From Methanococcoides methylutens (GTDB taxonomy: Archaea; Halobacteriota; Methanosarcinia; Methanosarcinales; Methanosarcinaceae): a stretch of DNA of 32,000 nt. The DNA lies in contig NZ_JRHO01000014.1 in assembly GCF_000765475.1 (NCBI RefSeq), positions 61,574 through 93,573 on the forward strand, in the 5' to 3' direction. Position 1 is the stretch's first letter. Every line of letters begins with the position of its first letter. Under the pieces are notes generated by a model. It was given only the letters and a program-made list of their open reading frames with translations. It did no database searches and had not been told where the DNA came from. Made by a program: the position numbers and the translations under genes. Of the stretch, positions 3 through 30,239 are shown piece after piece.

Positions 3-1532
3 ATCCCACAGGCAGTTCCGCAATCGGCTTACATCGACAATGAGTTCTGTGTTGGCTGCGGATTATGCAAACAGGCCTGCCCTGCAGATGCTATTGATTA
101 CAACCTCAAAGAAGAAGAATTCTCATTCACCGTCGGAGCCGTGATAGTTGCAACCGGTTATCAGGGGTTCGATGCAAAACGCAAGGAAGAATATGGTTAC
201 AGTGTCTATCCGGATGTCCTGACCAACATGGAGCTGGAAAGGCTTCTCAATGCATCGGGACCAACACGCGGTAGAGTGGTCGTTCCATCCACACACGAGA
301 CACCTGAAAAAGTTGCTTTTATCCAGTGCGTCGGATCAAGAGACGAGACCGTTGGAAACCCCTACTGCTCCCGTGTCTGCTGCATGTCATCCATGAAGAA
401 TGCACAGATGATCAAGGAGCGCTATCCTGACACCGATGTCACCATTCACTATATTGACATACGTGCAGCCGGTGAGATGTACGAGGAATACTACGTACGC
501 AGCCAGATGATGGAGATCAATTTCATCCGCGGCAAGGTCGCGGAAGTACAGCTTGACCCACAGGGACAGATGCAGCTCCGGTATGAGGACACACTTGAGT
601 GTGCCATTCGGGAGGAACCTTACGATCTAGTCATCCTGGCAACAGGAATGGAAGCCAGCACCACAACAGAGCCTATCGCAAAGATGTTGAACCTTTCAAA
701 AAGAACTGACAGGTTCTTGTCCATTGCACACCCGAAGATGAGGCCTGTGGATGCTCACATAAACGGCGTCTTCATCGCAGGCTGTGCATCGGGACCAAAG
801 GAGATACAGGCAGCCATCGCACAGGGAAGTGCAACTGCTGCAAGGTCCACCCGCCTGCTGGCAAAGGGAGAGCTTAAGAACGATCCATTCAGCGCACATG
901 TAGATCCGGAAAAATGTATCGGATGCCGCATATGTGAGAGTGTCTGCAATTTCAATACGATCAATGTCATAGACGGTAAAGCAGTGGTTGATGAGATCTC
1001 CTGCCAGACATGCGGTTCATGCAGTGCATCCTGTCCCACAGATGCCATAACCATGCCTCATAGTACCGATGAGCAAATCATTGCACAGATAAGGGCGGCT
1101 GTTGAGATCAAGGATGAGTTCCCGCTTATCATTGCGTTCCTCTGCAACTGGTGCAGCTATGGTTCCGCCGACCTTGCAGGAACATCAAGGATACAATACC
1201 CGACCAACGTAAGGATCATAAAGGTCATGTGCGCCGGACGTGTAGACCCTGACTTCGTACTGGAAGCATTGCAAGGGGGCGCGGACGGAGTACTTGTTAC
1301 CGGCTGTCGTCTTGATGAATGCCACTATATTCTGGGCAATATCGATGCAAAGCACAGGATGGAGAATCTCAAGGAAGTTCTCGATGAGATAGGCCTGGAT
1401 CCGCGAAGGCTGAGACTGCAATGGATATCCGCCGCAGAAGGGGATAAATTTGCAAAGACCATCGAGGATTTCGTTGACGAACTCACCGAACTTGGACCTG
1501 TTGGTTCCGAGTTGCCGGAGGAGCAGGAATGA
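3..1532 (+). CDS. hdrA: CoB-CoM heterodisulfide reductase subunit A-like protein (HdrA2-type) with C-terminal MvhD-like domain; 5' partial
   Basis: The reading frame of ORF 141..1532 stays open to the left edge (..IPQAVPQSAYIDNEFCVGCGLCKQACPADAIDYNLKEEEFSF..). Flavoprotein segment, then ferredoxin motifs CIGCRICESVC and CQTCGSCSASCPTDAI, then an MvhD-like tail IIAFLCNWCSYGSADLAGTSR..VMCAGRVDPDFVLEAL..GADGVLVTGCRLDECHY. Confidence 0.93.
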   Translation: MPQAVPQSAYIDNEFCVGCGLCKQACPADAIDYNLKEEEFSFTVGAVIVATGYQGFDAKRKEEYGYSVYPDVLTNMELERLLNASGPTRGRVVVPSTHETPEKVAFIQCVGSRDETVGNPYCSRVCCMSSMKNAQMIKERYPDTDVTIHYIDIRAAGEMYEEYYVRSQMMEINFIRGKVAEVQLDPQGQMQLRYEDTLECAIREEPYDLVILATGMEASTTTEPIAKMLNLSKRTDRFLSIAHPKMRPVDAHINGVFIAGCASGPKEIQAAIAQGSATAARSTRLLAKGELKNDPFSAHVDPEKCIGCRICESVCNFNTINVIDGKAVVDEISCQTCGSCSASCPTDAITMPHSTDEQIIAQIRAAVEIKDEFPLIIAFLCNWCSYGSADLAGTSRIQYPTNVRIIKVMCAGRVDPDFVLEALQGGADGVLVTGCRLDECHYILGNIDAKHRMENLKEVLDEIGLDPRRLRLQWISAAEGDKFAKTIEDFVDELTELGPVGSELPEEQE

Positions 1533-2818
1533 GTGATGAAGAAAAGTCCATGGAAGTCTCAAGGGAGATGGACATACAGGGCAACCACATCCTTTACAAG
1601 CTGATCTCCGACCGATCTGAAAAGACACTTGATTACGATTACAAAAGATGTGTGGGATGCGGGATCTGTGTAAGGATCTGCCCCACAAAAGCACTCGAAC
1701 TCGGACCTATCAAGGAAATAGCCACAGGCATGGATGCACCACCGGTGATGATGGACCTTGATAAGTGCACATTCTGTTCCATGTGCGTGAACTTCTGTCC
1801 TGTAACAGCTCTGGAAATGAGAACAGAAGGAGATTTCCCTGAAGAAGAACTCTATCCTGTGCTGGAATACAAGGTCGAGATGAACGAGAAATGTGTACCT
1901 TGTTCCCTCTGTGAGGCATCATGCCCGGAGGATGCCATTACTCTGGAATACACATTCCCTAAAAAGGAAGAGATAGCACCCCTGAAAGAGAACGCAGAAG
2001 GCGAGATAGAGATAGACACCGATAAGTGTAACCTCTGCGGCATATGTGCACATTTCTGTGATGCCTTCCTCATGCTGGAAAAGGAACCCACAGCAACTGA
2101 CCCCATGCCTTTTGAGCAACTTATTGTTGACGAGGATATGTGCGACTACTGCATGCTCTGCCAGGACATCTGTCCAGAGGATGCGATCAAAGTAAAGGGA
2201 GAGCGTCCCTGTGAACCGCCTGTAGTGTCAGGACATGTGACGGTCGATGATGATAAATGCACACGATGCGGCTGGTGTGATGCAGTCTGCCCTTATGATG
2301 CGGTCGATCTGGTAAAGCCATTCGAAGGCGATCTGGTACTTGTTGAGGAACACATCGAGAAATGTGACACACAGGGGTGTCATGCCTGCTTTAACATCTG
2401 CCCATCGCACCTCTGGTACGTCCCGGAAGATGGGAAGAACATCGCTGCGGTACACGACCTTTGCACCTATTGTGGAGCCTGCGTCAATGCCTGCCCCGTG
2501 GATGTGATGAAGGTAGCACGCAGCAAGGTCAATCATACGGATATACCCGATACGCCCTGGGCATCCGAATGGAAGGATGCCATTGATTCACTCCTCACAA
2601 AAGAAAGAAAGCGACCTGACCTCTCAAGGGCACTTGAGGTCGAGACCGAGCCACTGAAAGAGCATGTGGATATCGCATTCCCGGATGTCGATAAAGAGAT
2701 GATGGACAAGGTTTCCGAGAAGATGCAAACAGCCAGGGATGCACTGACCAAACCAAAGTTCAGGAAGATCCTGAACAAAGGTAAAGCAGAAGAGATACAC
2801 AGGTCCATGAAAAAATAA
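1529..2818 (+). CDS. Polyferredoxin with eight ferredoxin-type Cys motifs, translationally coupled to hdrA
   Basis: Start overlaps the hdrA stop (ATGAGTGATG). Motifs: CVGCGICVRICP, CTFCSMCVNFCP, CVPCSLCEASCP, CNLCGICAHFC, CDYCMLCQDICP, CTRCGWCDAVCP, CDTQGCHACFNICP, CTYCGACVNACP. Confidence 0.92.
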   Translation: MSDEEKSMEVSREMDIQGNHILYKLISDRSEKTLDYDYKRCVGCGICVRICPTKALELGPIKEIATGMDAPPVMMDLDKCTFCSMCVNFCPVTALEMRTEGDFPEEELYPVLEYKVEMNEKCVPCSLCEASCPEDAITLEYTFPKKEEIAPLKENAEGEIEIDTDKCNLCGICAHFCDAFLMLEKEPTATDPMPFEQLIVDEDMCDYCMLCQDICPEDAIKVKGERPCEPPVVSGHVTVDDDKCTRCGWCDAVCPYDAVDLVKPFEGDLVLVEEHIEKCDTQGCHACFNICPSHLWYVPEDGKNIAAVHDLCTYCGACVNACPVDVMKVARSKVNHTDIPDTPWASEWKDAIDSLLTKERKRPDLSRALEVETEPLKEHVDIAFPDVDKEMMDKVSEKMQTARDALTKPKFRKILNKGKAEEIHRSMKK

Positions 2819-9892: not shown

Positions 9893-12800
9893 TGGCAAAA
9901 CGAACAGATATTAACAAGATCCTGCTGATAGGCTCCGGACCGATCATGATCGGACAGGGAGCAGAATTCGATTTCTCAGGAAGCCAGGCTTGCAGGTCAT
10001 TAAGAGAAGAAGGATATGAAGTAGTCCTTGTAAACTCCAATCCGGCAACCATTATGACAGATCCGGAGATGGCAGATGCTGTTTACATCGAACCCCTTGA
10101 AGCAAAGATAATAGCAAAGATAATCGAGAAGGAACTCCCCGACGGTATCATTGCAGGTATTGGTGGTCAGACCGGACTGAACCTTACAAGTGAGCTTGCT
10201 GATCTGGGAGTTTTCGAAAAGTTCAATGTCGAACTACTTGGAACATCTCTTGAAGCTATCAAGAACACCGAGGACCGTGAGCTTTTCAAGAAGAAGATGG
10301 AAGAGATCGGAGAAAAGGTCCCGAGAAGTGTGGCTGTTTCCACACTGAAAGAAGCTGAAGCGCTCATTGACGAGCTCGGACTTCCACTTATCATTCGTCC
10401 CGCATACACCCTTGGTGGTGCTGGTGGCGGTATCGCATACACAAGAGAACAGCTTCTCGAGATCAGTGAAAGAGGACTGCGCCGCAGCAGGATCAATCAG
10501 GTGCTTATCGAAGAGAGCGTACTTGGCTGGAAAGAGTTCGAATACGAGGTCATGCGTGACTCCAATGATACATGTATAGTTATCTGTAACATGGAGAACC
10601 TCGACCCGATGGGAGTTCACACCGGTGAGTCCATTGTGGTAACACCATCCCAGACACTGAACGATATCGAACACCAGATGCTGAGAACAGCAGCTATCAA
10701 GATCATACGTGCTTTAGGAATTGAAGGTGGATGTAACATCCAGTTCGCTGCAAAAGACGGTGAATACAGGATCGTAGAGGTCAACCCGCGTGTTTCAAGA
10801 TCATCAGCCCTTGCATCAAAGGCAACAGGTTACCCGATCGCCAGGGTGACTGCTAAGATCGCCATAGGCATGACACTTGATCAGATCCTTAATGATGTCA
10901 CAAAGAAGACACCTGCATCCTTTGAACCTACCATTGACTACGTAGTTACAAAGATCCCAAGGTGGCCTTTCGACAAGTTCGTGACCGCGGACAAGACATT
11001 GACAACCGCTATGAAGAGTACCGGTGAGGTCATGTCCATCGGACGCACCATTGAGGAATCACTCCAGAAAGCAGTCCGTTCCCTTGATATCGGAATGAAG
11101 TTCGGAAGCAAGACATGGGACCAGGCAGAAGCCAAAACCCTGCTAAAAACACCTACCAGTGAGAGGCTTTTCGTTATCTTCGATGCATTGAAGAATGGTA
11201 TGAGCGTTGAAGAGGTCTCGGAACTTTCAGGTTATGATATATTCTTCGTAACAAAGATCAACAACATCGTCGAGATGGAGAACGAGCTTGAGAACAGGCT
11301 TTTCGCAGGTGAGCCGGACATTGAGATGCTCAGGTCTGCCAAGCAGATGGGATTCACCGATGACAGGATCGCAGAGCTCACAGGCAAGAGCCGCGAGGAG
11401 ATCAATGACCTTCGCCGTGAGAACATCAGTGCGACCTACAAGATGGTAGATACCTGTGCTGCAGAGTTCGCTGCAGAGACTCCTTACTATTATTCATGCT
11501 ACGAGACCATGTGCGAAGACCAGCCAACTGACAGGAAGAAGATCCTGATCCTTGGTGCAGGTCCTATACGAATCGGACAGGGTATCGAGTTCGACTACTG
11601 TACCGTCCACGCTGTCACAGCCATCCGTGATGAAGGCCTTGAGGCGCACATAATCAACAACAACCCTGAGACGGTATCAACTGACTACGATACATCCGAC
11701 AAGCTGTTCTTCGAGCCTCTGACACTCGAGGACGTCATGAACATTATCGATCGTGAGAAACCATACGGTGTGCTTGTCCAGTTCGGTGGACAGACATCTG
11801 TCAACCTTGCAATGCCACTCCAGAAAGAGCTTGACCGCCGTGATGACATCGATACGATAATTCTCGGAACATCTCCGGAAGACATCGACATGGCAGAGGA
11901 CAGGGAGAAGTTCAACCTGATGATGAGCAAGCTTGACGTTGCACAGCCTGAAGCAGGTTATGCAACATCCGAAGAAGACGCCATTGCGATCGCAACACGA
12001 ATCGGATACCCTGTACTTGTCAGGCCATCATACGTTCTCGGTGGACGTGCAATGGAGATCGTCTATGAACAGTCTGACCTTGAACGCTACATGATCGAAG
12101 CAGTTCGTGTGTCCCCTGAGCATCCGATCCTTATCGACGACTTCCTTGAGGGAGCAGTCGAGATCGATGTGGATGCTGTCTGTGACGGCAAGGACGTGCT
12201 TATCGGTGCCATCATGGAACACATCGAAGAAGCAGGTGTGCACTCCGGTGACTCTGCATGTGTGATCCCACCATACTCACTCTCCGAGGAAACTCTCGCA
12301 ACAGTACGTGATTATACCCGCAAGATCGCACTTTCGCTCAATGTTAAGGGACTTATCAACATCCAAATGGCAGAGCAGAATGGCAAGGTATACGTGCTTG
12401 AAGCAAACCCACGTTCCAGCCGAACGATCCCATTCGTATCAAAAGCAGTAGGGATGCCACTTGCCAAGATAGCTGCACAGGTCATTATCGGACATACCCT
12501 TGAAGACCTTGGATATGCAGAACTTGATGAGACACCCGTAAAACATTACTCTGTCAAGGAAGTATTACTTCCATTCGACAAATTGCCAGGTGCAGACCCT
12601 GTGCTCAGCCCTGAGATGAAGAGTACCGGAGAGGTCATGGGAGTTGACTATGATTTCGGACGTGCTTTCTTCAAGGCACAGATCAGTGCAGACAATATAC
12701 TGCCACTTAGCGGTTACGTTTTCATGTCCATCAGACAGAACGACAAGGAAGCCTTTGTTGAAACCGCCCGCAAGATGCAGGATGCAGGGCTTAAGCTCAT

Positions 12801-20394: not shown

Positions 20395-21606
20395 TCACTT
20401 ATTGCAATATTCCTTTTCATCAGCAAGACAGGCTTCATATAGCTGTTCACGAAGGTCCGGCATAGCTGAAAGGGCACGGGTCCAATCAGGCATGAGCACA
20501 TCTGAAGGATGTTCAAGGTAATCTTCACCTGATCTCCTGATAACATTTGCGAACATATCAACATATAGCTCTTCTTCATGCCTGTTATAGCACAGACCAT
20601 TGCAAAGGGCATCAGCATGATACCTGCGTATAAGGTCCTGACCGAGGCGCTTGTATTTTACATGGATACCATGCAGGTAAGAAGGTGAAATTATATTATC
20701 CGTGGATTCTGTTGTGATCCTCATAAAGGTCGTGAAGATATCACCGACCATTTTGCATAGACCTTCTGATCTGTTGGAACCTACATCCTGATGCTTATGA
20801 TCATAGTAACCAAGATCAGTCTGGCAGATCTTCTTAGTTGTTGTGTTTCTGTAGACCTCTGCAAGAAGACCGACTTCAAGTCCCCAATCTGCAGGGATCC
20901 GTATGTTCATGGCAAGATCACTTGTCATAGCAAATTCACCTGCAAGAGTATACCTGAAAGCAAGAAGATATCGAAGTATGTCAGCCTTGGAATCCGCCTG
21001 TAAAGTATCGAGCAAAGGACGTACAAAAAGCCTGAAAACACGACCATGCATGGTCTTTGTTTCCATATTTATCCTTGCATAATAGCCTTTATTGAAAAAG
21101 AAGTTCAGTTCCGGTTCCACAATAGGATACAATAACTTTGCCGGGAAATCCTTGGAATAAGTGACAATATCAGCATCATGATAAGCGATAGCATAGGAAT
21201 CAAGGGTGGCGATCCCCGTAGCCAGCCAGACATCTTTCCCTTTACCCTTATAAGAAGTAATATCGATCCCCATCTTTTTCATCGTGAATAAAATGTGCTG
21301 GGCTCTGGGGCCATCACACCATACCACAATGTGAGGAGTTTTCAATTCTTTGAAAAATTCCACCACATGAACATATTCTTCTTCAGTTTCAGCTGCAAGG
21401 GCGATAACGACCTGATTAAGGCAAGTACACTCATTGAGATTGGAAATTATGTTCTTAAGAGGGGGATTGTTAACCTCTTCATACAAGATAGGAATGATGA
21501 GTGATGCAGGTCTGCGAGTTTTAAGTTCATGTATTCTTTTGATAAGCCTTTCTTTATCGATACTAAAATCATGAATTGTCGTAATATATTCTTGGTAAAA
21601 ATCCAT
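20395..21606 (-). CDS. gpgS: Glucosyl-3-phosphoglycerate synthase-like glycosyltransferase
   Basis: RRPASLIIPILYEE, NQVVIALAAETEEEY, GKGKDVWLATGIA, AYHDADIVTYSKDFPAKLLYPI, GEFAMTSDLAMNIRIPADWGLEVGLLAEVYRN. Divergent from an MPGP-family phosphatase. Confidence 0.85.
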   Translation of the reverse strand: MDFYQEYITTIHDFSIDKERLIKRIHELKTRRPASLIIPILYEEVNNPPLKNIISNLNECTCLNQVVIALAAETEEEYVHVVEFFKELKTPHIVVWCDGPRAQHILFTMKKMGIDITSYKGKGKDVWLATGIATLDSYAIAYHDADIVTYSKDFPAKLLYPIVEPELNFFFNKGYYARINMETKTMHGRVFRLFVRPLLDTLQADSKADILRYLLAFRYTLAGEFAMTSDLAMNIRIPADWGLEVGLLAEVYRNTTTKKICQTDLGYYDHKHQDVGSNRSEGLCKMVGDIFTTFMRITTESTDNIISPSYLHGIHVKYKRLGQDLIRRYHADALCNGLCYNRHEEELYVDMFANVIRRSGEDYLEHPSDVLMPDWTRALSAMPDLREQLYEACLADEKEYCNK

Positions 21607-21850
21607 CTAACTCCCCAGTAGATCTGATAGGCTGCAAAGTGTTCATAGCCCGGAATAAAGACTGGATCGAAATGCATTCCCCCAACTGTAGATGCATCCC
21701 AATATTCCCGTTATGATATGTTGAATATCTATATATAGAACATTTAATATAAGCTTTTATACAGACGGGGAATTCAAAACTGGCATCGGTAGACTAAAAT
21801 ATTTACATGCTGCCAAATATTTTTAAAAACTGCTGGCAGGAGGAATGATC

Positions 21851-22672
21851 TTGGGGTATATTATATTTACAGATCTTGATGGCACTTTAATAGACCATGA
21901 TACTTATTCTTATGAAGCAGCAAGGCCTGCGCTTAACCTGCTAAAACAAAAAGATGTACCTCTAATTTTCTGTACCAGCAAAACCCGTGCAGAGATCGAA
22001 GTCTATGTTGAGGAACTGGACTGTCGCCATCCCTTCATATCAGAGAATGGAGGAGGCATCTTCATACCGAAAGGATATTTTGATATTGATCTGAAGTTTG
22101 ATCACAGGATCGGGGACTATAATGTCATAGAACTTGGAACCAACTATTCCAATCTAAAAGATGCCCTCGTGGAGATTAGCAAGAGCGCCGGTATTGAGAT
22201 AATCAATTTCGCAAACATGACCACTGAAGAAGTAAGTGAGGATACAGGACTCGATATTCACTCTGCAGGACTTGCAAAGCTACGCGAGTATGACGAGGTC
22301 TTCCGGATAATTGATGAAACTGAAGAAAAAGCCTCCCTGATGATGGAACTTATAAGATCTGCAGGGTACAACCACACCAGAGGTGGCAGATACTGGCATA
22401 TTATCGGGAACAACGATAAAGGCAAAGCTGTCAGGATGCTAAGTGACATCTACAGAAAGCAGTTCACTGATATCACTACAGTAGGTCTGGGCGATAGCCT
22501 GAATGACCTGCCAATGCTGGGATCTGTGGATATACCTGTTCTTGTACAAAAGCCGGGCAGCTTACACGACCCATCAATAACCGATCCGAAAATAAAGCGT
22601 GTAAAGGGTATCGGACCCATAGGGTGGAACAATGCAGTCAGCGAGATAATAGAGAAGGGGTCTGAAATTTAA
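21851..22672 (+). CDS. gpgP: HAD-family mannosyl/glucosyl-3-phosphoglycerate phosphatase
   Basis: YIIFTDLDGTLIDHDTYSYEAARPALN, FISENGGGIFIPKGYF, VGLGDSLNDLPML, VKGIGPIGWNNAV. The supplied ORF starts at ATG 21845, but AGGAGG at 21838-21843 is spaced better for TTG 21851. Confidence 0.85.
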   Translation: MGYIIFTDLDGTLIDHDTYSYEAARPALNLLKQKDVPLIFCTSKTRAEIEVYVEELDCRHPFISENGGGIFIPKGYFDIDLKFDHRIGDYNVIELGTNYSNLKDALVEISKSAGIEIINFANMTTEEVSEDTGLDIHSAGLAKLREYDEVFRIIDETEEKASLMMELIRSAGYNHTRGGRYWHIIGNNDKGKAVRMLSDIYRKQFTDITTVGLGDSLNDLPMLGSVDIPVLVQKPGSLHDPSITDPKIKRVKGIGPIGWNNAVSEIIEKGSEI

Positions 22673-22699
22673 TTTTAAGAACATAAAGGGGTACATGGA

Positions 22700-23230
22700 A
22701 TGATACGAATTGAGAATATGATATCAAGAGCCTTTTTGATAGGGATTATCAAGATGGTGGACAAGAATGGGGTCCAGAATGCACTGGAATGGTTACGTGA
22801 GATCGGGGAAGAATTAGCTGAGATCGAAGGACCTGGATTTGAAGGTGCTCGTGAAGATGACATTAACTATTTGCCGGTCTGTCCGTTTTCAAATACTCTC
22901 CTTGATTTTATAGCGATATATGGAGAGAGACCATCACAATTCGTAGAACTTGTAAACCTTTCCAACAAGCAAATGATGGAGGCAGAAGATGGATGGGAAT
23001 ATCCGGCACTGACAACTGTCACAGGCATACTTCATCACAGCTACATTAAAAAACGAGGATTGTTGGCAGGTGTTGAACTTCTTAACGTGGGATCAAGATG
23101 TCCCCGTACCAACAATATAGTCTACAACGAAAAAGCCCTTGAAAAAGCAAATATGACAAAAGAAGATGTGGATAAGTATCTTGAAAAAGCATATTACGTT
23201 TGTAAGATCAATTACCTTAAAAAGGAGTGA
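22700..23230 (+). CDS. Hypothetical protein, between gpgP and GH15-like gene
   Basis: ATG at 22700 with GGGGT 7 nt upstream. Tight spacing with gpgP, and its stop overlaps the next ORF start region. Sequence includes INYLPVCPFSNTLLDFIAIYGERPSQFVELVNLSNKQMM..SRCPRTNNIVYNE. Confidence 0.75.
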   Translation: MIRIENMISRAFLIGIIKMVDKNGVQNALEWLREIGEELAEIEGPGFEGAREDDINYLPVCPFSNTLLDFIAIYGERPSQFVELVNLSNKQMMEAEDGWEYPALTTVTGILHHSYIKKRGLLAGVELLNVGSRCPRTNNIVYNEKALEKANMTKEDVDKYLEKAYYVCKINYLKKE

Positions 23231-23235
23231 ATTCT

Positions 23236-24459
23236 TTGAACCTGATCGAAGCTGAAAAACTCTACGAGAACAGCGTAAAGATCCTGAAGAACAACCAGCA
23301 TGAAAAAGGAGGATTTTATGCAAGTCCGCCAGGAACACGATATCCTTTTATCTACCCTCGAGACCACTCGGTGGCAATACTTGGCTGCATTGATGCCGAA
23401 ATGCTGGACGAGGCCAGAAGGGGTCTTGAATTTGTCCTGAACTCCCAAAAGCCCCTGGGAGAATTTTCCCAGAGATATGATGTTGACGGAAATGACGCCA
23501 GCTACAAGGACCTGCAGATCGATGGGAACGGACTGGTCCTTTTTGCAATGGGAAAATATTTCGAAGCAACGGGCGGACTCTTCTTTGAATCGATGGCCGA
23601 CAGGACTTTTGTGGAAAAGCACTGGGAAACTGTCAAGAAAGCCGTTGAGTTCATACTGATGAACAAGAACGAAGAGGTCGACCTGATCCATACCGTGAAC
23701 AGCATCCACGAATATCCCGCCTACGAGCATGGTTTTGAGATCTATGCCAACTCTGCCTGTTGTGCAGGGATCCTCGCAGCAGTAAAAATGGGAGAAGCTC
23801 TTGGTGAAGATGTCGCCAACTGGAAAGCTGAGGCTGAAAAGATAAGGGAAGCCATTCTTACACGGATGTATAGCCCGCGTAGGCGCTCATTTATCAAATG
23901 TATCCGTGTAAAAGAGAAAAGCAGCAACCCTATCGGATATGATGCATTCGCCTCAAGCGTCATCGATGTGGATGTTGTGGAATACGCACCTGCATATTTT
24001 GAGCTCATCGATCACCATGACATAAAGAATCGTTATACTGTCAGGAGGATACATGATAGGCTCTGGGACAAAGAGATCGGAGGCTTGAACCGCTATCCGG
24101 AAATGTGGGACAGGAATAACGGAGGATATGGCCCATGGTGCCACTTCACCTGCCAGCTTGCAAACCATTATATTGCTATTGATGACCAGGATATGGCAGA
24201 GATGTATATGGGCTGGGTAGTGGATATGGCACACAACTACCTCCTGCCTGAACATATCTCAACAATTGAAAGGTTTGAGATATGGCATGAAGACTATACC
24301 AACGCAAAGATCCTCAGGGATAGTAAACTCACCATGATCGAGAAAGTGCGTAACCATCCAAAATGGAAAGACGGGATGGCATACGTAACGATACCCCTGA
24401 TATGGCCTCATGCAGAGTATATCAGGACTTACAAGAGCTATATTGAGAAGTTTGGATAA
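23236..24459 (+). CDS. GH15-like glycoside hydrolase (glucoamylase/(alpha/alpha)6-barrel family)
   Basis: KGGFYASPPGTRYPFIYPRDHSVAILGCIDAEMLDEARRGLEFVL, YKDLQIDGNGLVLFAMGKY, GLNRYPEMWDRNNGGYGPWCHFTCQLANHYIA. ORF given from GTG 23227; TTG 23236 has better SD spacing. Confidence 0.75.
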   Translation: MNLIEAEKLYENSVKILKNNQHEKGGFYASPPGTRYPFIYPRDHSVAILGCIDAEMLDEARRGLEFVLNSQKPLGEFSQRYDVDGNDASYKDLQIDGNGLVLFAMGKYFEATGGLFFESMADRTFVEKHWETVKKAVEFILMNKNEEVDLIHTVNSIHEYPAYEHGFEIYANSACCAGILAAVKMGEALGEDVANWKAEAEKIREAILTRMYSPRRRSFIKCIRVKEKSSNPIGYDAFASSVIDVDVVEYAPAYFELIDHHDIKNRYTVRRIHDRLWDKEIGGLNRYPEMWDRNNGGYGPWCHFTCQLANHYIAIDDQDMAEMYMGWVVDMAHNYLLPEHISTIERFEIWHEDYTNAKILRDSKLTMIEKVRNHPKWKDGMAYVTIPLIWPHAEYIRTYKSYIEKFG

Positions 24460-24601
24460 GAGAGGAACATTCCTTTATTCGAGAAATCGTTCTTTTTAAA
24501 AGCAAAAATGAGTGCAGGTATCATGTTCCTACTATTACAGGATGTCTGCACTTGTTTATAATAATCGCTTATTTTTACCCCGAATAAACAACAAGAGCAG
24601 A

Positions 24602-25378
24602 TCAGAGCGGGAGACAGACCTTCCTTTGTACGGAACTAACATGATCGATAGCAACATCGATCCCATATGCAAGTGTCATGTTCTCTTTTGTTATTACTTC
24701 TTCAGCAGTCCCCTGAGCTATGAAATTATTCTCAAGCATTATGGCAACATTTTTTGAACCTATAAAAGCATGATCCGGGAAATGTGTGCTCATTATTACA
24801 GAAGTCCCCTGAGAAGAAAGTTTGTCAATAAGGTTCAAAACACGTACCTGGTTCCCAAAATCCAGATGGGATGTCGGTTCATCCAGGAGCAATATTTCCG
24901 GTTCCTGAGCCAGTGCCCTTGCGATCAAAGCCAGTTGCTTTTCACCACCACTTATTTCTGTGACAGAACTATCCATCAGATGAGAAATGCCTACTTTAAC
25001 GATGGCATTTTCCGCGATCTTAAGATCCTTTTCGCCCGGAGAGGAGAAAAAAGGAAGATGCGGTGCTCTGCCAAGCATTACAAAATCCAGAATGGAAAAG
25101 GGAAATACCGACTGATCTGCCTGTGGGACATAGCCTATCTTTTTAGCTATCTCTGTTCTGCTCATCGAAGAGACATCCCTGCCGTCAATATATGCATTCC
25201 CATTACTCAAATTCAGCACGTTGCCAAGGCATTTGATCAGGGTTGATTTACCTATCCCGTTCGGACCAAGTATGCATAAGGTTTCACCTTTATTTAAAGA
25301 AAAAGATATGTTCTCAAATACATTCTTCTTCCCGTCATACGAATATGAAGCATTGTTCACTCTTAAGATCATGACCAA
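24602..25378 (-). CDS. ABC transporter ATP-binding protein, FecE/BtuD type
   Basis: Walker A LGPNGIGKSTLIKCL, signature SGGEKQLALIARAL, Walker B ILLLDEPTSHLD, H-loop STHFPDHAF. Overlaps the permease gene. Confidence 0.95.
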   Translation of the reverse strand: MVMILRVNNASYSYDGKKNVFENISFSLNKGETLCILGPNGIGKSTLIKCLGNVLNLSNGNAYIDGRDVSSMSRTEIAKKIGYVPQADQSVFPFSILDFVMLGRAPHLPFFSSPGEKDLKIAENAIVKVGISHLMDSSVTEISGGEKQLALIARALAQEPEILLLDEPTSHLDFGNQVRVLNLIDKLSSQGTSVIMSTHFPDHAFIGSKNVAIMLENNFIAQGTAEEVITKENMTLAYGIDVAIDHVSSVQRKVCLPL

Positions 25379-26478
25379 CCAACCTTCTTTCTTTGTAAAA
25401 GATAAGCAAAAAACGGAGCTCCTATTAGTGCCGTAAGAACTCCCAGGGGAATCTCTATACTCATTAAACTCCTTGCCAGATCGTCCACCACCAAAAGGAA
25501 GGATGCACCAAGGAAAATTGACATTGGCAAAAGCTTTTTGTGCTCAGGCCCGACGATCATTCTTGCAATATGAGGCACAACAAGACCAACCCATCCAATG
25601 ATCCCGCTTATACTGACTGCGGAAGTGGTGATCAGAGTAGCACAAATTACAACCAATATTGTCATTTTCCGGGTATCTATTCCCAATGATTTTGCCTCGT
25701 CCTCTCCTAAAGAAAGTATATTGATGCGCCATCCGATTAGAACTAAGATAAGCATAGAGACCAGCATCCCGGGTGCTACATAGACAAGATCATCAAACCG
25801 GACAGAGGACAGGCTTCCCATAAGCCAGAATACCATCTCAGGAAGCTTGTCGTATGGATCTGCAACATATTTTACCAGGGATGTCAAAGCAGTGAAAACC
25901 GCACCTACAATAATACCTGAAAGCACCAGGACCAATGTAACCGTTGCCCTGCAGAATCTGCTCAGACCGTAGGACAGAAAAGCTGCAGATAAACCAAAAG
26001 AAAACGCCATTAATTGGATCATGATTATGTTCTCACTTATCAGGATACCAAAACAAGCGCCAAACCCGGCACCTGCTGCCACACCCAGAATATGGGGAGA
26101 AACCAGCGGATTGCGGAAAAGCCCCTGGAAAGAAGCTCCAGATACTGATAATCCAGCACCTACCAGCATGGCGGCAATGATCCTTGGAAGACGGACCTGA
26201 AATATTACAGTATCCACATTTGAAGAGCTTGCAGGATCCACCGACACAAAAAGCGAAACGATCAGGGATACCAAATGGGAAACAAGGCTGCTCATTATAG
26301 TAAGCGGAGGAATCGAATACCTCCCAATGAAAAAGGAGAATCCAAAAAGAAAGACCATAAGGAAAAATACAAGGAGAATCTGATTATTACTACCAGACAG
26401 CCTGTGAATGATCCACCATAACCTTGAACTTTTTTTTATTCCAGTATCAGACACCATATCAAACCCATATCCTAACAT
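25369..26478 (-). CDS. FecCD/BtuC-family ABC transporter permease
   Basis: RLPRIIAAMLVGAGLSVSGASFQGLFRNPLVSPHILGVAAGAGFGACFGI, GEDEAKSLGI, SISGIIGWVGLVVPHIARMIVGPEHKKLLPMS, GIPLGVLTALIGAPFFAYLL (IEIPLGVLTALIG in this protein). Multiple TM segments. Confidence 0.95.
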   Translation of the reverse strand: MLGYGFDMVSDTGIKKSSRLWWIIHRLSGSNNQILLVFFLMVFLFGFSFFIGRYSIPPLTIMSSLVSHLVSLIVSLFVSVDPASSSNVDTVIFQVRLPRIIAAMLVGAGLSVSGASFQGLFRNPLVSPHILGVAAGAGFGACFGILISENIIMIQLMAFSFGLSAAFLSYGLSRFCRATVTLVLVLSGIIVGAVFTALTSLVKYVADPYDKLPEMVFWLMGSLSSVRFDDLVYVAPGMLVSMLILVLIGWRINILSLGEDEAKSLGIDTRKMTILVVICATLITTSAVSISGIIGWVGLVVPHIARMIVGPEHKKLLPMSIFLGASFLLVVDDLARSLMSIEIPLGVLTALIGAPFFAYLLQRKKVGWS

Positions 26479-26508
26479 GCATACATGATAATTTTGTTGA
26501 ATCAGTTA

Positions 26509-28251
26509 TTACTTAGATGAAGCACCGTAAAAAGACCTGTTCTGCCTTGAAGGATCAAAGGAAAAACCATAGAACTTTTCATAAAACCGGTTTGCTTCCT
26601 TTTCAATGTCAAAATCAAAGATATCCGGATGCAACTTGTTTGCGATATACATCAGTCCCAATATCCATCTCGGACTTCCGAAATCCCAGGATGGCCGAAG
26701 GCCGTATATCTGTCTGCTCTTTACAGCATCTGCCGAAAGACCATGCTTTTCACAATAATCATATGAATCGGAAACAGGGGTTGAAAGAAAACCGGATATG
26801 AATATAAATTCAGGATTCATTTCGGCAAATTCTTCCTGAGAAATATTAACTCCGGGTTTACCCTCTCTCTTGATCAGCTGATTTACACTTTCCCCGCCGG
26901 CAGCTTCAACAAGATTGTTCTCAATACGCTCTCCGTTGAGCGCAAAAAGAGGATATCCCATAGAATAATAAACCCGTGGCCTTCCAGTGTTTTTTACTCC
27001 CGACCTGATAAGGTCCAGTTTCTCCTTCATATAATCCACAAGTTCCATTCCTTCCCTTTTTTTGTCTGCAAGGGCGGCAAAATGCTCAATTACATCAAAA
27101 TAGGAATCAAGGTTCTGTGAACTGGTATGAAGCTCCTCCAAATATCCGGTTTCCATGACATTTAGCCATATTTCGGCAAGTTTCCTGTCGTCTCTTATCC
27201 CAAGGCAGATCAGAATCGCATGGATCATCTCCAGAGCCCGGGTAAGCCTGTATCCTCCCATAAAACCCGGTTCATGATGATTTTTTTTGCTGATGTAGCC
27301 CCTGAAAAGATCCGGGACGGAGCATTCACATTTTCCTTCAGGCAGGTATGCTATTGTGCGTGAACCCATGGGACCGAAGAACTCCCTTTGAAAAATCACC
27401 TGACCACATTCGGGACATACCGTATTCAAATATTCGGTACCCGGAGAATTAAACAAATAGACATAAGTAAGATCTTGCCTTAATTTGTCACACAGAATTT
27501 CAGCGTCCCTGATCGTTGGTTCGATCTGCGGGACTGCATCCCCAAAAGGCACAAACCTCATAATCTGGAACGGTATATCCTTTGAAAGAGAAAAAACATA
27601 TTTAGCAGTATTTATAACCTCATCTTCTGAACCTTTGATGTAGATGGTAGAAACTTCAACATGAACATCACTTTCATTCAATAGTTTCAGATTCCTGAAA
27701 ACAGGTTCTGAGCTTTTGACCCCGCAGGAAATATATCTTTCATCGGAGAAGCCTTTTATTCCGACATTTACAAAATCAATTAACGGGATAAGTTCTTTTA
27801 ATGCGCTTTCTGCAAAATAGCCATTTGTTGAACACCCGATAAACAGGTCGTTTTCCTTAGCCTTTCTGGCAAGGTCCTTAAACGTGAAAAATGAAACGAT
27901 CGGATCGTTAAGACAAAAAACGATCCCGATACAATCTTCCTCAAGAGCTTTTTTTATTACCTGGTCATTACTCATTCCGCCATTCTTTTTACCTGAAACA
28001 AGCCGTGAAGCAATGATCTCTGATACGCAACCCTCACATTTAAAATTGCAGCCAATGGTACACACCTGCAGGAATTTTCCTCGTGGATGAAAATGAAGGA
28101 TCGGAACAGTTTCAATAGAAATTGGCAGCATCGTAAAGTAGTTGCATGGGAATCTCTCAACGATCTTATCGCCCTCAATGGCATACATACGACATTGGCC
28201 ATATTTTCCTTCTGCGATATTGCAACCGATCTCACATATGGTGCATTGCAT
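26509..28251 (-). CDS. Radical SAM protein (AmmeMemoRadiSam/PflA-like) fused to the C-terminal portion of a Fe/B12-type substrate-binding protein fold; predicted cytoplasmic
   Basis: N-terminal CTICEIGCNIAEGKYGQC, then CTIGCNFKCEGC (CX3CX2C radical-SAM motif, codons within 28027-28062). C-terminal RVYYSMGYPLFALNGERIENNLVEAAGGESVNQ..VNISQEEFAEMNPEFIFISGF..WDFGSPRWILGLMYIANKLHPDIFDFDIEKEANRFYEKFYGF resembles the C-lobe of Peripla_BP_2 proteins. No signal peptide. Confidence 0.82.
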   Translation of the reverse strand: MQCTICEIGCNIAEGKYGQCRMYAIEGDKIVERFPCNYFTMLPISIETVPILHFHPRGKFLQVCTIGCNFKCEGCVSEIIASRLVSGKKNGGMSNDQVIKKALEEDCIGIVFCLNDPIVSFFTFKDLARKAKENDLFIGCSTNGYFAESALKELIPLIDFVNVGIKGFSDERYISCGVKSSEPVFRNLKLLNESDVHVEVSTIYIKGSEDEVINTAKYVFSLSKDIPFQIMRFVPFGDAVPQIEPTIRDAEILCDKLRQDLTYVYLFNSPGTEYLNTVCPECGQVIFQREFFGPMGSRTIAYLPEGKCECSVPDLFRGYISKKNHHEPGFMGGYRLTRALEMIHAILICLGIRDDRKLAEIWLNVMETGYLEELHTSSQNLDSYFDVIEHFAALADKKREGMELVDYMKEKLDLIRSGVKNTGRPRVYYSMGYPLFALNGERIENNLVEAAGGESVNQLIKREGKPGVNISQEEFAEMNPEFIFISGFLSTPVSDSYDYCEKHGLSADAVKSRQIYGLRPSWDFGSPRWILGLMYIANKLHPDIFDFDIEKEANRFYEKFYGFSFDPSRQNRSFYGASSK

Positions 28252-28253
28252 AT

Positions 28254-28907
28254 TTATTCCACCTTCCTGAACAGTATCCAGAAACCGGATTCATCTTCTA
28301 TTATCTCATAATGCCCTATTTCGGCAGTTAACAGCGCCTTTTTAAAAGAGTCGAGTTTGGATCGTTCCAATCTTTTTGCGGCAGTTTGGGACCAGTTCTC
28401 ATCCCTTTTTTCCATTTCCCGTGTGATCTTTGACTTCAGTTCAGCTGTTCCGAAGCCACCCCCTATATAGGCTGATCCACCGGGTTTCAGTACCCGGTAT
28501 ATCTGCCTGAAGGCTTCAGGCACATTTTCCCAGAAAAAGAGGGAACCACGACTTACGATCAGCTCAGCAAAGTTATCATCAAAAGGCATGTCATGAACAT
28601 CCCCCAGTACAGGGATCACCTTCTCGTCGAGGTTGCCTGAATCAATCCTTTTCTTTGCTATAGCAACCATTTTTTCAGAGAAATCCATTGCATAGACCTG
28701 ACCAACCATGATCTTGCTAATGGCAATTGCAAGTGATGCGGGACCACTGCCCACATCAATGCAAATCCCACTGTTGATATTGCACCTGTCTATAATCTGC
28801 TCTGAAATAACAGGATATATAGGTGCAAAGACATTGGTCGCAACATCTTCAAACTCTTCGGCATAATCATCATGAAATCGAACTTTATCACTTGATCTGT
28901 CTATCAT
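28254..28907 (-). CDS. Class I SAM-dependent methyltransferase
   Basis: ICIDVGSGPASLAIAISKIMVGQVYAMDFSEKMVAIAKKR, VLGDVHDMPFDDNFAELIVSRGSLFFW, IYRVLKPGGSAYIGGGFG. Almost abuts the radical SAM gene. Confidence 0.9.
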   Translation of the reverse strand: MIDRSSDKVRFHDDYAEEFEDVATNVFAPIYPVISEQIIDRCNINSGICIDVGSGPASLAIAISKIMVGQVYAMDFSEKMVAIAKKRIDSGNLDEKVIPVLGDVHDMPFDDNFAELIVSRGSLFFWENVPEAFRQIYRVLKPGGSAYIGGGFGTAELKSKITREMEKRDENWSQTAAKRLERSKLDSFKKALLTAEIGHYEIIEDESGFWILFRKVE

Positions 28908-28936
28908 TTAATCCACCTTCTGTTTTGTAAAAACCA

Positions 28937-30019
28937 TTAATTGGATTTAGAAGCTGGATTCAATAGTTCATCCAACTCAGTTCCCGACAGTTCATAGTGA
29001 TAGAACTCTGAATAGAATTCCTTAACAAAACCCCTGAGGTCAAGATCGCTGAACTCTTCCGGATACAGCACTTTGGCTGTCCATGGTATACCGATTATCC
29101 TGTTCACTCCCGGTGGCCTGTCAAACCAGCAAAAAGGAGCATCCGGGAATAGATATACCTCATGGTCCTTTACCGCAGTGATATCATGCCAGAGAGGGTC
29201 TTCATATATATTTTCATAGAAGTCACGGTCACCTGTGATGATGACTTCAGGATCCCATTGCAATACCTGTTCGATGGATACCTCTGACCTTCCGTATCCT
29301 ATGTCAAGCGGACATTCTGCTACGTTGATGCCACCACATATTTCGATCAATTGACTGTGGGGAGAGCCCTTAGGATCTGTCAGCAGCCCTTCCGGACCTT
29401 CTGCATAATAGACACGCTTCCTTTCATCTTCAGGTATCTGTGAGACCTTTGTAGTGACAGTGTCAAGTGTTCCTTTATAGAAAGAGATTAATTGCCCTGC
29501 CCGTTCTTCTTCCCCCAGAAGTTCACCCATAAATCGTATTGGTTCTTCATAGGCCGTGGCATCGGTTGTCGATTCAATACCTACAACAGGAATTGTACCA
29601 AACTTTTCCTGTCTTGCATTGATAGTAGAAGTAACATCCCCTCCGCTATTGTAGCCTTCAAAGACAACATCAGGACCGATAGATATAATGGTTTCATAAT
29701 TTCCATCCTGTTTACCAAACCACCCGCCAATCACAGGAACAGCCTGGTACTCTGGTTTCAGATATGTTTCCGATTCCTGTGGCAGAAAATTCCAGCCTGC
29801 CAATTTATCGGGAGCCAGCATGTAAATGAGCATTGTTGCAGGAGGAGAGGTAGCAACTACTTTGTTCACATCGGCTGGAATTTCAACTGTCCTTCCTGCC
29901 ATATCGGTTATCGATATTGTGTTCTGCGCATAAGTTTCTTTTTGATCAACACATGCGCTTGAGCATACCGCAAACAAGACCACACATATCAATAAAATGG
30001 ATCTGAATTTTTTATTCAT
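28937..30019 (-). CDS. ABC transporter substrate-binding protein (Fe3+/B12/metallophore type, Peripla_BP_2), probable lipoprotein
   Basis: Signal region MNKKFRSILLICVVLFAVCSSACVDQ (lipobox-like SSAC). ITDMAGRTVEIPADVNKVVATSPPATMLIYMLAPDKLAGW, ISIGPDVVFEGYN, QLIEICGGINVAE, FDRPPGVNRIIGIPWTAKVLYPEEF. Confidence 0.9.
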   Translation of the reverse strand: MNKKFRSILLICVVLFAVCSSACVDQKETYAQNTISITDMAGRTVEIPADVNKVVATSPPATMLIYMLAPDKLAGWNFLPQESETYLKPEYQAVPVIGGWFGKQDGNYETIISIGPDVVFEGYNSGGDVTSTINARQEKFGTIPVVGIESTTDATAYEEPIRFMGELLGEEERAGQLISFYKGTLDTVTTKVSQIPEDERKRVYYAEGPEGLLTDPKGSPHSQLIEICGGINVAECPLDIGYGRSEVSIEQVLQWDPEVIITGDRDFYENIYEDPLWHDITAVKDHEVYLFPDAPFCWFDRPPGVNRIIGIPWTAKVLYPEEFSDLDLRGFVKEFYSEFYHYELSGTELDELLNPASKSN

Positions 30020-30054: not shown

Positions 30055-30070
30055 ACATATTGCGATATGT
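30055..30070. promoter_or_regulatory. Short inverted repeat ACATAT-tgcg-ATATGT upstream of the ABC/radical-SAM operon, candidate operator
   Basis: Perfect 6-bp arms with a 4-nt spacer, 36-51 nt upstream of the start codon at 30019 in the minus-strand leader. Confidence 0.35.
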
Positions 30071-30239
30071 TTGGATGAACATAACGATAGATAAAGTTTT
30101 CTAAATGAGTCGAGATGCTAACAGGACCAAAAAGATTCTCAAAGAAGAAAAGAAAAGAAAAGAAAACCGAACAACTCGAATTAATCAAGCCAGTCTTTAA
30201 AAAAAGAAAGTGGAAATACAGATCAAAACATTTATGCCT

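Follow-up and report, generated by a model that had tools for sequence, protein, structure and literature searches.

A Conserved Five-Gene Operon of Methanococcoides methylutens Joins a MolBC-A-Type Importer to a Methyltransferase and an Architecturally New Radical SAM Enzyme and Points to Molybdenum or Tungsten

The operon and its likely cargo

A five-gene operon was analysed in a 32,000-nucleotide stretch of DNA of the archaeon Methanococcoides methylutens (contig NZ_JRHO01000014.1, positions 61,574 to 93,573 of the forward strand), hereafter called the window. The operon encodes a class III substrate-binding protein (SBP), a methyltransferase (MT), a radical S-adenosylmethionine (SAM) enzyme fused to half an SBP (RSF), a FecCD-family permease and an ATP-binding cassette (ABC) ATPase (Table 1). 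Part of this system is of a known kind, namely a MolBC-A-type importer with a predicted Mo-box operator; the new part is the conserved addition of the MT and of a radical SAM enzyme of new architecture. Five independent lines, namely the homology of the transporter, relatives of the operon that have no RSF, the promoter operator, a ModA–SBP fusion and the modCBA genes of Methanoregula, point to molybdenum (Mo) or tungsten (W). An earlier reading, made from the sequence alone, had held that the substrate cannot be read from the sequence. This view was not upheld, since the MolBC-A-like parts, the Mo-box, the ModA fusion and the linkage to modABC appear to narrow the cargo class to Mo/W, with Mo not distinguishable from W.

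We give about even chances to the favoured reading as a whole, in which a Mo-box-controlled Mo/W importer brings in a cargo that the MT and RSF process in the cytoplasm. That the cargo is a Mo/W species is, taken by itself, rather probable.

Conservation of the five-gene unit

All five open reading frames (ORFs) of the sequence-only reading were recovered on the minus strand with exactly the same coordinates, and Pfam and NCBIfam searches confirmed its domain calls for the five products. The close packing on one strand that it described is borne out by the junctions: the SBP and MT genes are separated by 29 nt, the MT and RSF genes by 2 nt, and the RSF and permease genes by 30 nt, while the permease and ATPase genes overlap. 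The MT gene ends with TAA, the ATG of RSF follows after 2 nt, and a Shine–Dalgarno-like GGTGGA lies within the 3′ end of the MT gene.

The neighbourhood sample consisted of 80 genome loci with their flanks from Methanosarcinales, Methanomicrobiales, ANME-1, Methanolliviera, Desulfobacterales, and Spirochaetota, and the five window proteins were mapped onto each of them. The MT gene is located directly upstream of the RSF gene on the same strand in 74 of the 78 evaluable loci; the remaining loci (4/78) carry MT elsewhere. The SBP, permease, and ATPase genes are all present in 34 of the 38 loci having at least 4 kb on each side. Four gene orders were found: SBP-MT-RSF-permease-ATPase, SBP-MT-RSF facing ATPase-permease, permease-ATPase-SBP-MT-RSF, and SBP-permease-ATPase-MT-RSF. 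This arrangement is not due to chance and lies far beyond it. Clustering of all ORFs of the 80 loci revealed no sixth conserved partner gene. The five-gene unit is conserved and translationally coupled, and we are nearly certain that it is a real unit.

Members of the RSF family, about 580 aa in length, were found in Methanosarcinales, Methanomicrobiales, Methanococcales, Ca. Methanolliviera, Desulfobacterales, Desulfatiglandales, and Spirochaetota, and the genome loci added members from ANME-1. The window RSF is 100% identical to a public protein; M. methylutens belongs to the 90% cluster of that protein. The suggestion that the two enzymes are true partners of the importer, and that this is not a plain iron or vitamin B12 arrangement, gains support from their retention across Archaea and Bacteria in the sampled loci. 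Transporter-only neighbourhoods without both enzymes are not the pattern in the RSF-containing family. In public databases, these proteins are named “radical SAM protein”, “pyruvate formate-lyase-activating enzyme”, and “iron complex transport system”.

The Methanococcus maripaludis S2 genome carries the same five-gene-type unit (locus L082, chromosome positions 1154369-1172126). Its MT is MMP1179, encoded directly upstream of the RSF CAF30736. By accession arithmetic, CAF30736 is MMP1180, a number in line with how mmp1176, mmp1177, and mmp1181 are annotated in the literature, and the unit would be MMP1179-1183. This cluster has four SBP genes, of which one is broken into two ORFs (mmp1176/1177), and an O-methyltransferase gene with a dimerisation domain. 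MMP1176, an SBP neighbouring the unit, drops under H2 limitation, which is uninformative.

Several loci contain additional copies of the components. In Desulfobacula and other Desulfobacteraceae (L017, L019, L021, L024, and L025; for example, L019:626-6472), a second, parallel module is located upstream of the MT–RSF pair. Its products are a Methyltransf_23 methyltransferase, an SBP with a FecCD permease and an ATPase, a free-standing radical SAM enzyme (about 340 aa; about 31% identity to the N-domain of RSF), and a conserved protein that is about 400 aa long and has no Pfam match. Downstream of the RSF gene, the same loci encode a membrane protein of about 760–800 aa with multiple haem-binding motifs. 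In Methanoculleus (L045:3333-5060 and L046:5059-6687), a second, divergent RSF paralogue of about 575 aa (36% identical) is convergent to the first one and is apparently co-transcribed with permease and ATPase genes. A second MT–RSF pair without a nearby transporter occurs in several genomes (L011-L015 and L036).

Transporter components

MolBC-A (HI1470/HI1471/HI1472) of Haemophilus influenzae, which imports molybdate and tungstate as a type II ABC system (PMC4031551), provides the best or near-best solved homologue of each component of the window transporter. The permease is most similar to HI1471/MolB (2NQ2_A, 1.7e-71), followed by FhuB (1.2e-49), HmuU (1e-47), and BtuC (7e-39). The best importer-type solved homologue of the ATPase is HI1470/MolC (2NQ2_C, 3.9e-43). 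Among the structures of the PDB, the SBP is similar to 4PAG (2e-54), 4OVK (6.5e-29), and, in third place, MolA (3PSA, 1.7e-24), with BtuF at 2e-6; 4PAG and 4OVK are uncharacterised SBPs from structural genomics. Judged by this kinship with MolB, MolC, and MolA, the operon probably encodes an importer of the MolBC-A type. Like the window system, MolBC-A comprises a class III SBP, a permease of the FecCD fold, and an ATPase; both systems are linked to Mo homeostasis and both coexist with ModABC. Unlike the window operon, MolBC-A has no methyltransferase or radical SAM partner. In addition, the window SBP is nearer to 4PAG and 4OVK than to MolA, and its cargo may be another Mo/W species.

Other importer identities were considered and fit poorly. 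A BtuCD-F vitamin B12 importer does not fit the scores of the curated models (238 bits for BtuC with a cut-off of 461, and 31 bits for BtuF with a cut-off of 234), and no corrinoid context was found, either as a riboswitch in the window or 10 bacterial loci or as cob/cbi genes among the conserved neighbours. Nor does an iron-siderophore or haem importer of the Fhu, Fec, Fep, Hmu, or Isd type fit: all NCBIfam models remained below their cut-offs, including FecD (188 vs. 406), the haem ATPase model (177 vs. 261), and IsdE (29 vs. 299).

The Mo-box operator

On the minus strand, the predicted operator of the window has the sequence CGTTATGTT-CATCCA-AACATATCG; it lies upstream of the SBP gene and ends 43 nt before the start codon. 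It matches the Mo-box pattern CGnTATnTT-N6-nACATAnCG at the promoter and fits CGWWATG-N10-CATWWCG exactly. In 1.16 Mb of sequence, the latter pattern has 8 exact and 16 one-mismatch sites, all of them in promoters; composition-preserving shuffles of the same sequence give an expectation of 0 exact and 2.4 one-mismatch sites. Every Methanosarcinales RSF operon has the inverted repeat directly after a TATA-like box, which reads TTTATA(T/C)C in these loci and occupies the same position as in the window.

The modA promoter of Escherichia coli K-12, read from its sequence, contains CGTTATATT-GTCGCC-TACATAACG, which we take to be the established ModE operator. Fifteen of the 18 half-site positions are identical between this site and that of the window, and the 6-nt spacer is the same length. 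The two sites share the 9-6-9 palindrome, the outer CG, and the location at a promoter. Unlike the E. coli site, the archaeal one lies directly after the TATA box, and ModE binding and a response to Mo are predictions for it.

The operator also recurs upstream of genes of Mo/W metabolism. In Methanobacterium, it precedes a FecCD-type operon, modA (two sites; TIGR01256 above cut-off), and fwdF (NF042909, 468 bits with a cut-off of 375), a subunit of the tungsten formylmethanofuran dehydrogenase. When metagenome contigs were scanned blindly with the operator in its Methanosarcinales form, sites were found upstream of modA-modB-modC (L126, L129, and L141), of FmdE and polyferredoxin genes (L153 and L155), of modB/modC/TOBE genes on high-GC bacterial contigs (L164, L115, L088, and L093), and of further FecCD-type operons (L151 and L152). 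It is highly probable that the operon is a member of a Mo/W regulon. Another candidate member is the gene of a 776-aa protein without a Pfam or NCBIfam match in Methanobacterium (L083:2577-4907), which has its own Mo-box-like operator at L083:2506 and is located between fwdF and methyltransferase/DUF364 genes.

About half of the matches of the metagenome scan were discarded as noise, being a repeat centred on GAGCTC and located beside integrases or transposases, that is, an unrelated mobile element. The palindrome CGTTATGTT-GAGCTC-AACATAACG is present in many gut and environmental contigs (L086-L165; for example, L089:1798-1821, L143:9700-9723, and L150:2041-2064). Integrases of the phage type and Mu-like or DDE transposases are encoded beside it, together with short ORFs of around 110 aa. 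The palindrome has the look of a terminal or attachment repeat belonging to a mobile element that is widespread and happens to resemble the Mo-box in its half-sites.

Links to molybdenum and tungsten in relatives

In Methanobacterium and Ca. Methanoliparum, SBP-FecCD-ATPase operons without RSF were found, whose SBPs are orthologues of the window SBP with 55–60% identity. These operons sit among genes for an MT orthologue, other methyltransferases, and DUF364, FmdE-domain, and Mop/TOBE proteins. The transporter encoded beside them has a ModA (TIGR01256) and a Mo-type permease (TIGR01581), both above cut-off, and a WtpC/ModC-like ATPase. In the paper on the DUF364 structure, STRING links of this family to tungstate and molybdate transport genes were noted (PMC2954201).

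A metagenome-assembled genome of Methanomethylovorans sp. (Methanosarcinales; L067, 5360-7369) contains an uninterrupted 669-aa ORF that fuses a ModA domain (TIGR01256, 216.6 bits with a cut-off of 62.5) to the SBP of the operon. The order within the protein is a lipoprotein signal, a low-complexity linker rich in Ser, Thr, and Asn, the ModA domain, and the SBP. The fusion gene is the first one behind the operator, and the MT, RSF, permease, and ATPase genes follow. As a protein, it is an unusual two-SBP, cross-class fusion, joining a class II (ModA) and a class III SBP.

In Methanoregula, modCBA is located directly after the RSF gene and is convergent to it. An element with 21 specified bases, ATTTACTTTT-N8-TTAAATGAAAA, is common to the promoters of the RSF operon and of modA; it is located 16 nt upstream of the SBP-MT-MT-RSF operon and about 50–80 nt upstream of the divergent modA. 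The MT gene is present in these loci as a tandem duplicate, and TrmO-like and TOBE genes are found nearby.

The radical SAM enzyme with half an SBP

The fusion of a radical SAM enzyme and an SBP proposed from the sequence is real; the alignment and the Foldseek comparison specify that only half of an SBP is present, namely the inter-lobe helix and the C-lobe. The order of the parts is an N-terminal cysteine cluster, a core similar to pyruvate formate-lyase (PFL) activase and AmmeMemoRadiSam enzymes, a second cysteine set, a helical linker, and the half-SBP at about residues 380–580. The C-domain aligns to residues 150-344 of the operon’s own SBP (26% identity, E = 2e-9). Its best PDB sequence matches are 4HN9, CeuE, 4OVK, 4PAG, and MolA, which largely represent the sub-clade of that SBP. 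Judged by sequence, the half-SBP is drawn from the SBP lineage of the transporter itself. An exhaustive search of 1.8 billion representatives found the complete module of linker and half-SBP only in proteins of about 540–604 aa and always in the same position, so this architecture defines one diverse family.

Alignments of 16 and then 73 family members were analysed. In these alignments, the CX3CX2C motif (C68/C72/C75) is invariant. The N-terminal cysteine set (C3, C6, C10, and C20) is invariant, and the second set, CxxC...CxC (C279, C282, C308, and C310), nearly so. The loops of the C-domain are very strongly conserved (VYYxMGxPLFALN, RxE, GKPG, SG, and WDFGSPRW), with the invariant ones at Y428-N439, R442/E444, K465-G467, and W522-G525. 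The AlphaFold2 model is one compact body (pLDDT 91, pTM 0.91). When it was compared with the PDB using Foldseek, residues 1 to about 300 resembled PFL activase (matches 3CB8 and 8FO0), the last 200 or so superposed on half a class III SBP (target-normalised TM-score about 0.5), and no whole-chain match was found among the solved structures. Since RSF has Fe–S motifs and no signal peptide, it is cytoplasmic.

The N-terminal 300 residues and the CX3CX2C motif make RSF similar to PFL activase and AmmeMemoRadiSam enzymes, from which it differs in its own C-terminal half-SBP and two extra cysteine clusters. All curated radical SAM models remained below cut-off, the best being AmmeMemoRadiSam TIGR04337 (114 bits vs. 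220). Several identities were considered and rejected. An activase of glycyl-radical enzymes does not fit, with 25 bits for the PFLA model (cut-off 232) and no glycyl-radical enzyme in the window or the conserved neighbours. Nor does an AmmeMemoRadiSam enzyme, with TIGR04337 below cut-off and neither AMMECR1 nor Memo among the conserved neighbours. A class B (cobalamin-dependent) radical SAM methylase was rejected as Pfam found no B12-binding Rossmann domain (PF02310), and a Mmp10-like or other B12-dependent radical SAM enzyme because there was no such match among the top Foldseek results.

The methyltransferase

The window MT is the orthologue of the M. maripaludis protein MMP1179 (PDB 3DLC, E = 2e-61 over the full length), which, like the window MT, is encoded directly upstream of the RSF of its genome. 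This entry comes from structural genomics and contains bound SAM. Its large substrate cavity and its similarity to two C-methyltransferases, CouO and Coq5, have been noted (PMC5289526). The MT orthologue of the Methanobacterium clusters without RSF is 38–49% identical to the MTs of all 80 loci.

Proposed mechanism

According to the favoured reading, the operon is a single transcription unit under Mo-box control and part of the regulon for Mo/W homeostasis. With enough Mo/W in the cell, a repressor of the ModE type would occupy the palindrome that follows the TATA box and keep the genes switched off. After derepression, the MolA-like SBP would capture an extracellular Mo/W species, and the MolB-like permease dimer with the MolC-like ATPase would import it in the type II mode, as homology and context suggest. 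The cargo is probably a form that ModA handles poorly, because ModABC is available to the cells for plain molybdate and the family occurs only in strict anaerobes of sulfidic habitats; thio-molybdate, thio-tungstate, or a ligand-bound species can be put forward speculatively. The MT and RSF may act as a translationally coupled pair in the cytoplasm, where the half-SBP, packed on the open radical SAM barrel, would be a substrate-binding cap that receives the imported species. Radical SAM chemistry and SAM-dependent methylation would then make the cargo usable for cofactor synthesis, conceivably by S-methylation or by radical removal of sulfido or organic ligands. That the MT and RSF process the imported species at all is a tentative proposal, to which we give less than an even chance. 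The sequence-only reading had offered two mechanisms, and modification after import is favoured over synthesis of a metallophore, since an exporter and further biosynthetic genes are missing.

A more specific version is quite unlikely: that the MT–RSF pair lets strict anaerobes use the thio-molybdates and thio-tungstates prevailing in sulfidic waters. The MolBC-A-like pump would import the thio-anion, and the half-SBP of RSF would pass it to the radical SAM/Fe–S site; SAM-dependent methylation would remove or exchange sulfido ligands, for example as methanethiol, and the product would be Mo/W fit for the assembly of pterin cofactor or nitrogenase cofactor. If this version were true, the processing of metal anions would gain a new enzymology and the radical SAM enzymes a new architecture.

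Several observations weigh against the favoured reading. We know of no chemistry of Mo/W handling for which a methyltransferase and a radical SAM enzyme are both required. The invariant residues of the cleft loops are not the same in the RSF half-SBP and in the extracellular SBP, so the idea that both keep the same ligand-contact residues is unsupported, and recognition of one ligand by both is only a possibility. The permease scores 245 bits against MolB and 238 bits against the haloarchaeal BtuC model NF007081 (cut-off 461), and similarity alone is not decisive here. MolA itself binds molybdate weakly, with low affinity (PMC4031551), and the physiological cargo of the reference system is debatable. 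According to the Pfam and NCBIfam annotation, no mod, moa, or fwd gene is adjacent to the operon in the window, and the operator is the sole tie of this copy to Mo/W. The canonical Mo-box was not found in the Methanoculleus, Methanococcus, Desulfobacterales, and Spirochaetota loci; the M. maripaludis promoters have common AT-rich palindromes similar to TGTAAT...ATTACA instead. The M. maripaludis copy adjoins ferritin, ZIP, and peroxiredoxin genes, and the cargo might differ between lineages. Finally, no regulator gene is adjacent to the operon, and only sporadic DUF134-like and ArsR-like ORFs were seen in some Methanosarcina loci.

Alternative explanations

Two alternatives in which the enzymes do not process an incoming Mo/W species are both fairly unlikely. 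The MT and RSF might never touch the cargo and might be co-regulated Mo/W maturases that share a Mo-responsive operon, their target being, for example, formylmethanofuran dehydrogenase or another Mo/W enzyme, or else the pterin cofactor. The name of FmdE comes from the operon of the Mo-formylmethanofuran dehydrogenase, and in the lineages without RSF, the MT orthologue accompanies FmdE-domain and DUF364 proteins, the latter proposed to act on pterin- or flavin-like molecules (PMC2954201). RSF has matches to a radical SAM maturase of tungsten-cofactor oxidoreductases (28.5 bits) and to MoaA, and a few loci have the MT–RSF pair without a transporter (L012, L015, and L036). These maturase matches are, however, weak and far below their cut-offs, the origin of the RSF C-domain from the SBP lineage of the transporter argues for a link to the cargo, and in Methanosarcinales the two enzyme genes are embedded between the SBP and permease genes. 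Alternatively, the MT-like enzyme and RSF might build a SAM-derived chelator of Mo/W or another metal, by chemistry likened to that of nicotianamine, opine metallophores, or azetidine, and the ABC system would re-import the complex. Bulky chelates are the typical cargo of type II importers, and many loci have 2–4 SBP genes. SAM-using enzymes do cluster here (the MT, its Methyltransf_23 and O-methyltransferase paralogues, DUF364, and RSF), and there is the case of a DUF364 enzyme that carries out the cyclisation of a SAM derivative which a radical SAM enzyme has produced (PMC12930334). Yet DUF364 is present in only about 9 of the 80 RSF loci, in which ORF clustering showed neither a conserved exporter nor a further biosynthetic gene. 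The window has no Pfam or NCBIfam matches to metallophore synthases of the CntL/CntM/NAS type, 3DLC has an ordinary small-molecule methyltransferase fold with bound SAM (PMC5289526), and a cytoplasmic half-SBP is better suited to receiving a ligand than to making one.

Explanations with another cargo are very unlikely. In one of them, the operon would be a BtuFCD-like importer of cobamides and RSF a new cobalamin-dependent radical SAM methylase, whose half-SBP would hold the corrinoid while the MT loads the methyl group. The scores of the permease (238 bits) and of the ATPase (176 bits) with the haloarchaeal corrinoid ABC models, the weak similarity of the SBP and the RSF C-domain to BtuF, and the weak match of the MT to the corrinoid-protein-associated methyltransferase CpaM (33 bits) speak for it. 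All these scores are well below the curated cut-offs, though, and the BtuF similarity (2e-6) is far weaker than that of the MolA clade. Rfam searches of the window and of 10 bacterial loci returned no riboswitch, the cobalamin type included, cob/cbi genes are not recurrent near the operon in the ORF clustering of the 80 loci, the promoter has the Mo-box common to modABC, and RSF contains only half of a B12-binding cleft. In the other, the system would import an iron chelate or haem, and the MT and RSF would destroy the ligand anaerobically to free the iron. This would agree with public names such as “iron complex transport system” and with the ferritin and ZIP genes near the M. maripaludis copy. 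It also has an analogy in ChuTUV/ChuW, which we take to be an importer encoded together with the cytoplasmic radical SAM methyltransferase ChuW that acts on haem by methyl transfer and radical SAM chemistry; like the window system, it would combine a type II ABC importer with a cytoplasmic radical SAM enzyme. ChuW, however, is a single HemN-like enzyme, whereas the window encodes a separate class I MT and a PFL-activase-like radical SAM enzyme of another clade. Every NCBIfam iron, haem, and siderophore model stayed below its cut-off, even the nearest of the haem SBPs lie much further away than the MolA clade, and the regulation and genomic context of the operon (the Mo-box, the ModA fusion, and the modABC linkage) point to Mo/W, in contrast to haem for ChuTUV/ChuW.

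Significance

Mo and W are essential for methanogenesis (formylmethanofuran dehydrogenase), for formate and aldehyde oxidoreductases, and for nitrogenase. No description of the MT–RSF pair, the fusion family, or the operon was found in a full-text literature search, and the papers on the Fe/S and Mo omics of Methanococcus voltae and M. maripaludis, without their supplements, do not mention the operon. The operon hints at a route, not yet described, by which strict anaerobes acquire or process Mo/W. Payne et al. (2024) showed that M. maripaludis grows on tetrathiomolybdate and noted that alternative MoO4/MoS4 transport systems probably await discovery (PMC11484787). How anaerobes acquire Mo/W in sulfidic settings is an open question (PMC11484787), which the operon makes testable: it is a concrete candidate, conserved across many lineages and open to genetic work through its orthologues in M. 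maripaludis and Methanosarcina acetivorans. The operon also provides a physiological context for a large radical SAM family of new domain architecture and for the orphan structure 3DLC and, by association, for DUF364 and FmdE-domain proteins. The label “iron complex transporter”, which hundreds of public annotations carry in methanogens, ANME, and sulfate reducers, may be mistaken.

Features and neighbouring genes of the window

Table 1. Coordinates of the operon genes and associated elements; positions are those of the window unless a locus number is given.
Feature	Position	Strand	Description
SBP	28937..30019	minus	Extracellular class III SBP, 360 aa, signal/lipobox-like N-terminus, MolA-related sub-clade; Peripla_BP_2 82.8 bits
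MT	28254..28907	minus	Class I SAM-dependent METHYLTRANSFERASE, 217 aa; Pfam Methyltransf_11/25
RSF	26509..28251	minus	580 aa, without signal peptide; Radical_SAM 47.3 bits and Peripla_BP_2 at residues 379-519
Permease	25369..26478	minus	FecCD-family type II ABC importer, MolB-like, 369 aa; Pfam FecCD 300 bits
ATPase	24602..25378	minus	ABC ATPase, MolC-like, 258 aa counted from TTG; Pfam ABC_tran
Mo-box operator of ModE type (predicted)	30063..30086	minus	9-6-9 inverted repeat
TATA-like box TTTATCTA	30088..30095	minus	Putative archaeal promoter element, abuts the operator on its upstream side
T-rich tract CTTGTTGTTTATT	24583..24595	minus	Just past the ATPase stop; possible archaeal oligo-T terminator
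Methanoregula element sites	L074:5391-5419, 12710-12738; L076:7228-7256; L077:13165-13193		

For the ATPase gene, the more likely start is the ATG at 25372, giving a protein of 256 aa, and not the TTG at 25378 of the longest ORF, because this ATG forms an ATGA overlap with the stop codon of the permease gene and is preceded by GGTTGG.

The genes flanking the operon in the window are unrelated to it. Its upstream neighbour is an adenine deaminase gene. Downstream, genes for a glucosyl-3-phosphoglycerate synthase, a mannosyl-3-phosphoglycerate phosphatase, and a GH15-like protein are located, the last of which is convergent to the operon and ends at 24459; housekeeping genes lie further off. At the far end of the window (141-2818), a FlpD/MvhD-like protein with 4Fe-4S motifs is encoded, followed by a polyferredoxin of 429 aa. 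The region 1619-2569 was considered as a homologue of a Methanobacterium neighbour and rejected, being merely the polyferredoxin matching FwdF-like Fe–S repeats. The downstream genes form a compatible-solute group (20395-24459) composed of the glucosyl-3-phosphoglycerate synthase (NF040724, 748 bits), the phosphatase, which belongs to the mannosyl-3-phosphoglycerate phosphatase family of HAD proteins, an uncharacterised ORF of 176 aa, and the GH15-like protein, which is also similar to mannosylglycerate hydrolase. The composition of this group suggests turnover of glucosylglycerate or mannosylglycerate.

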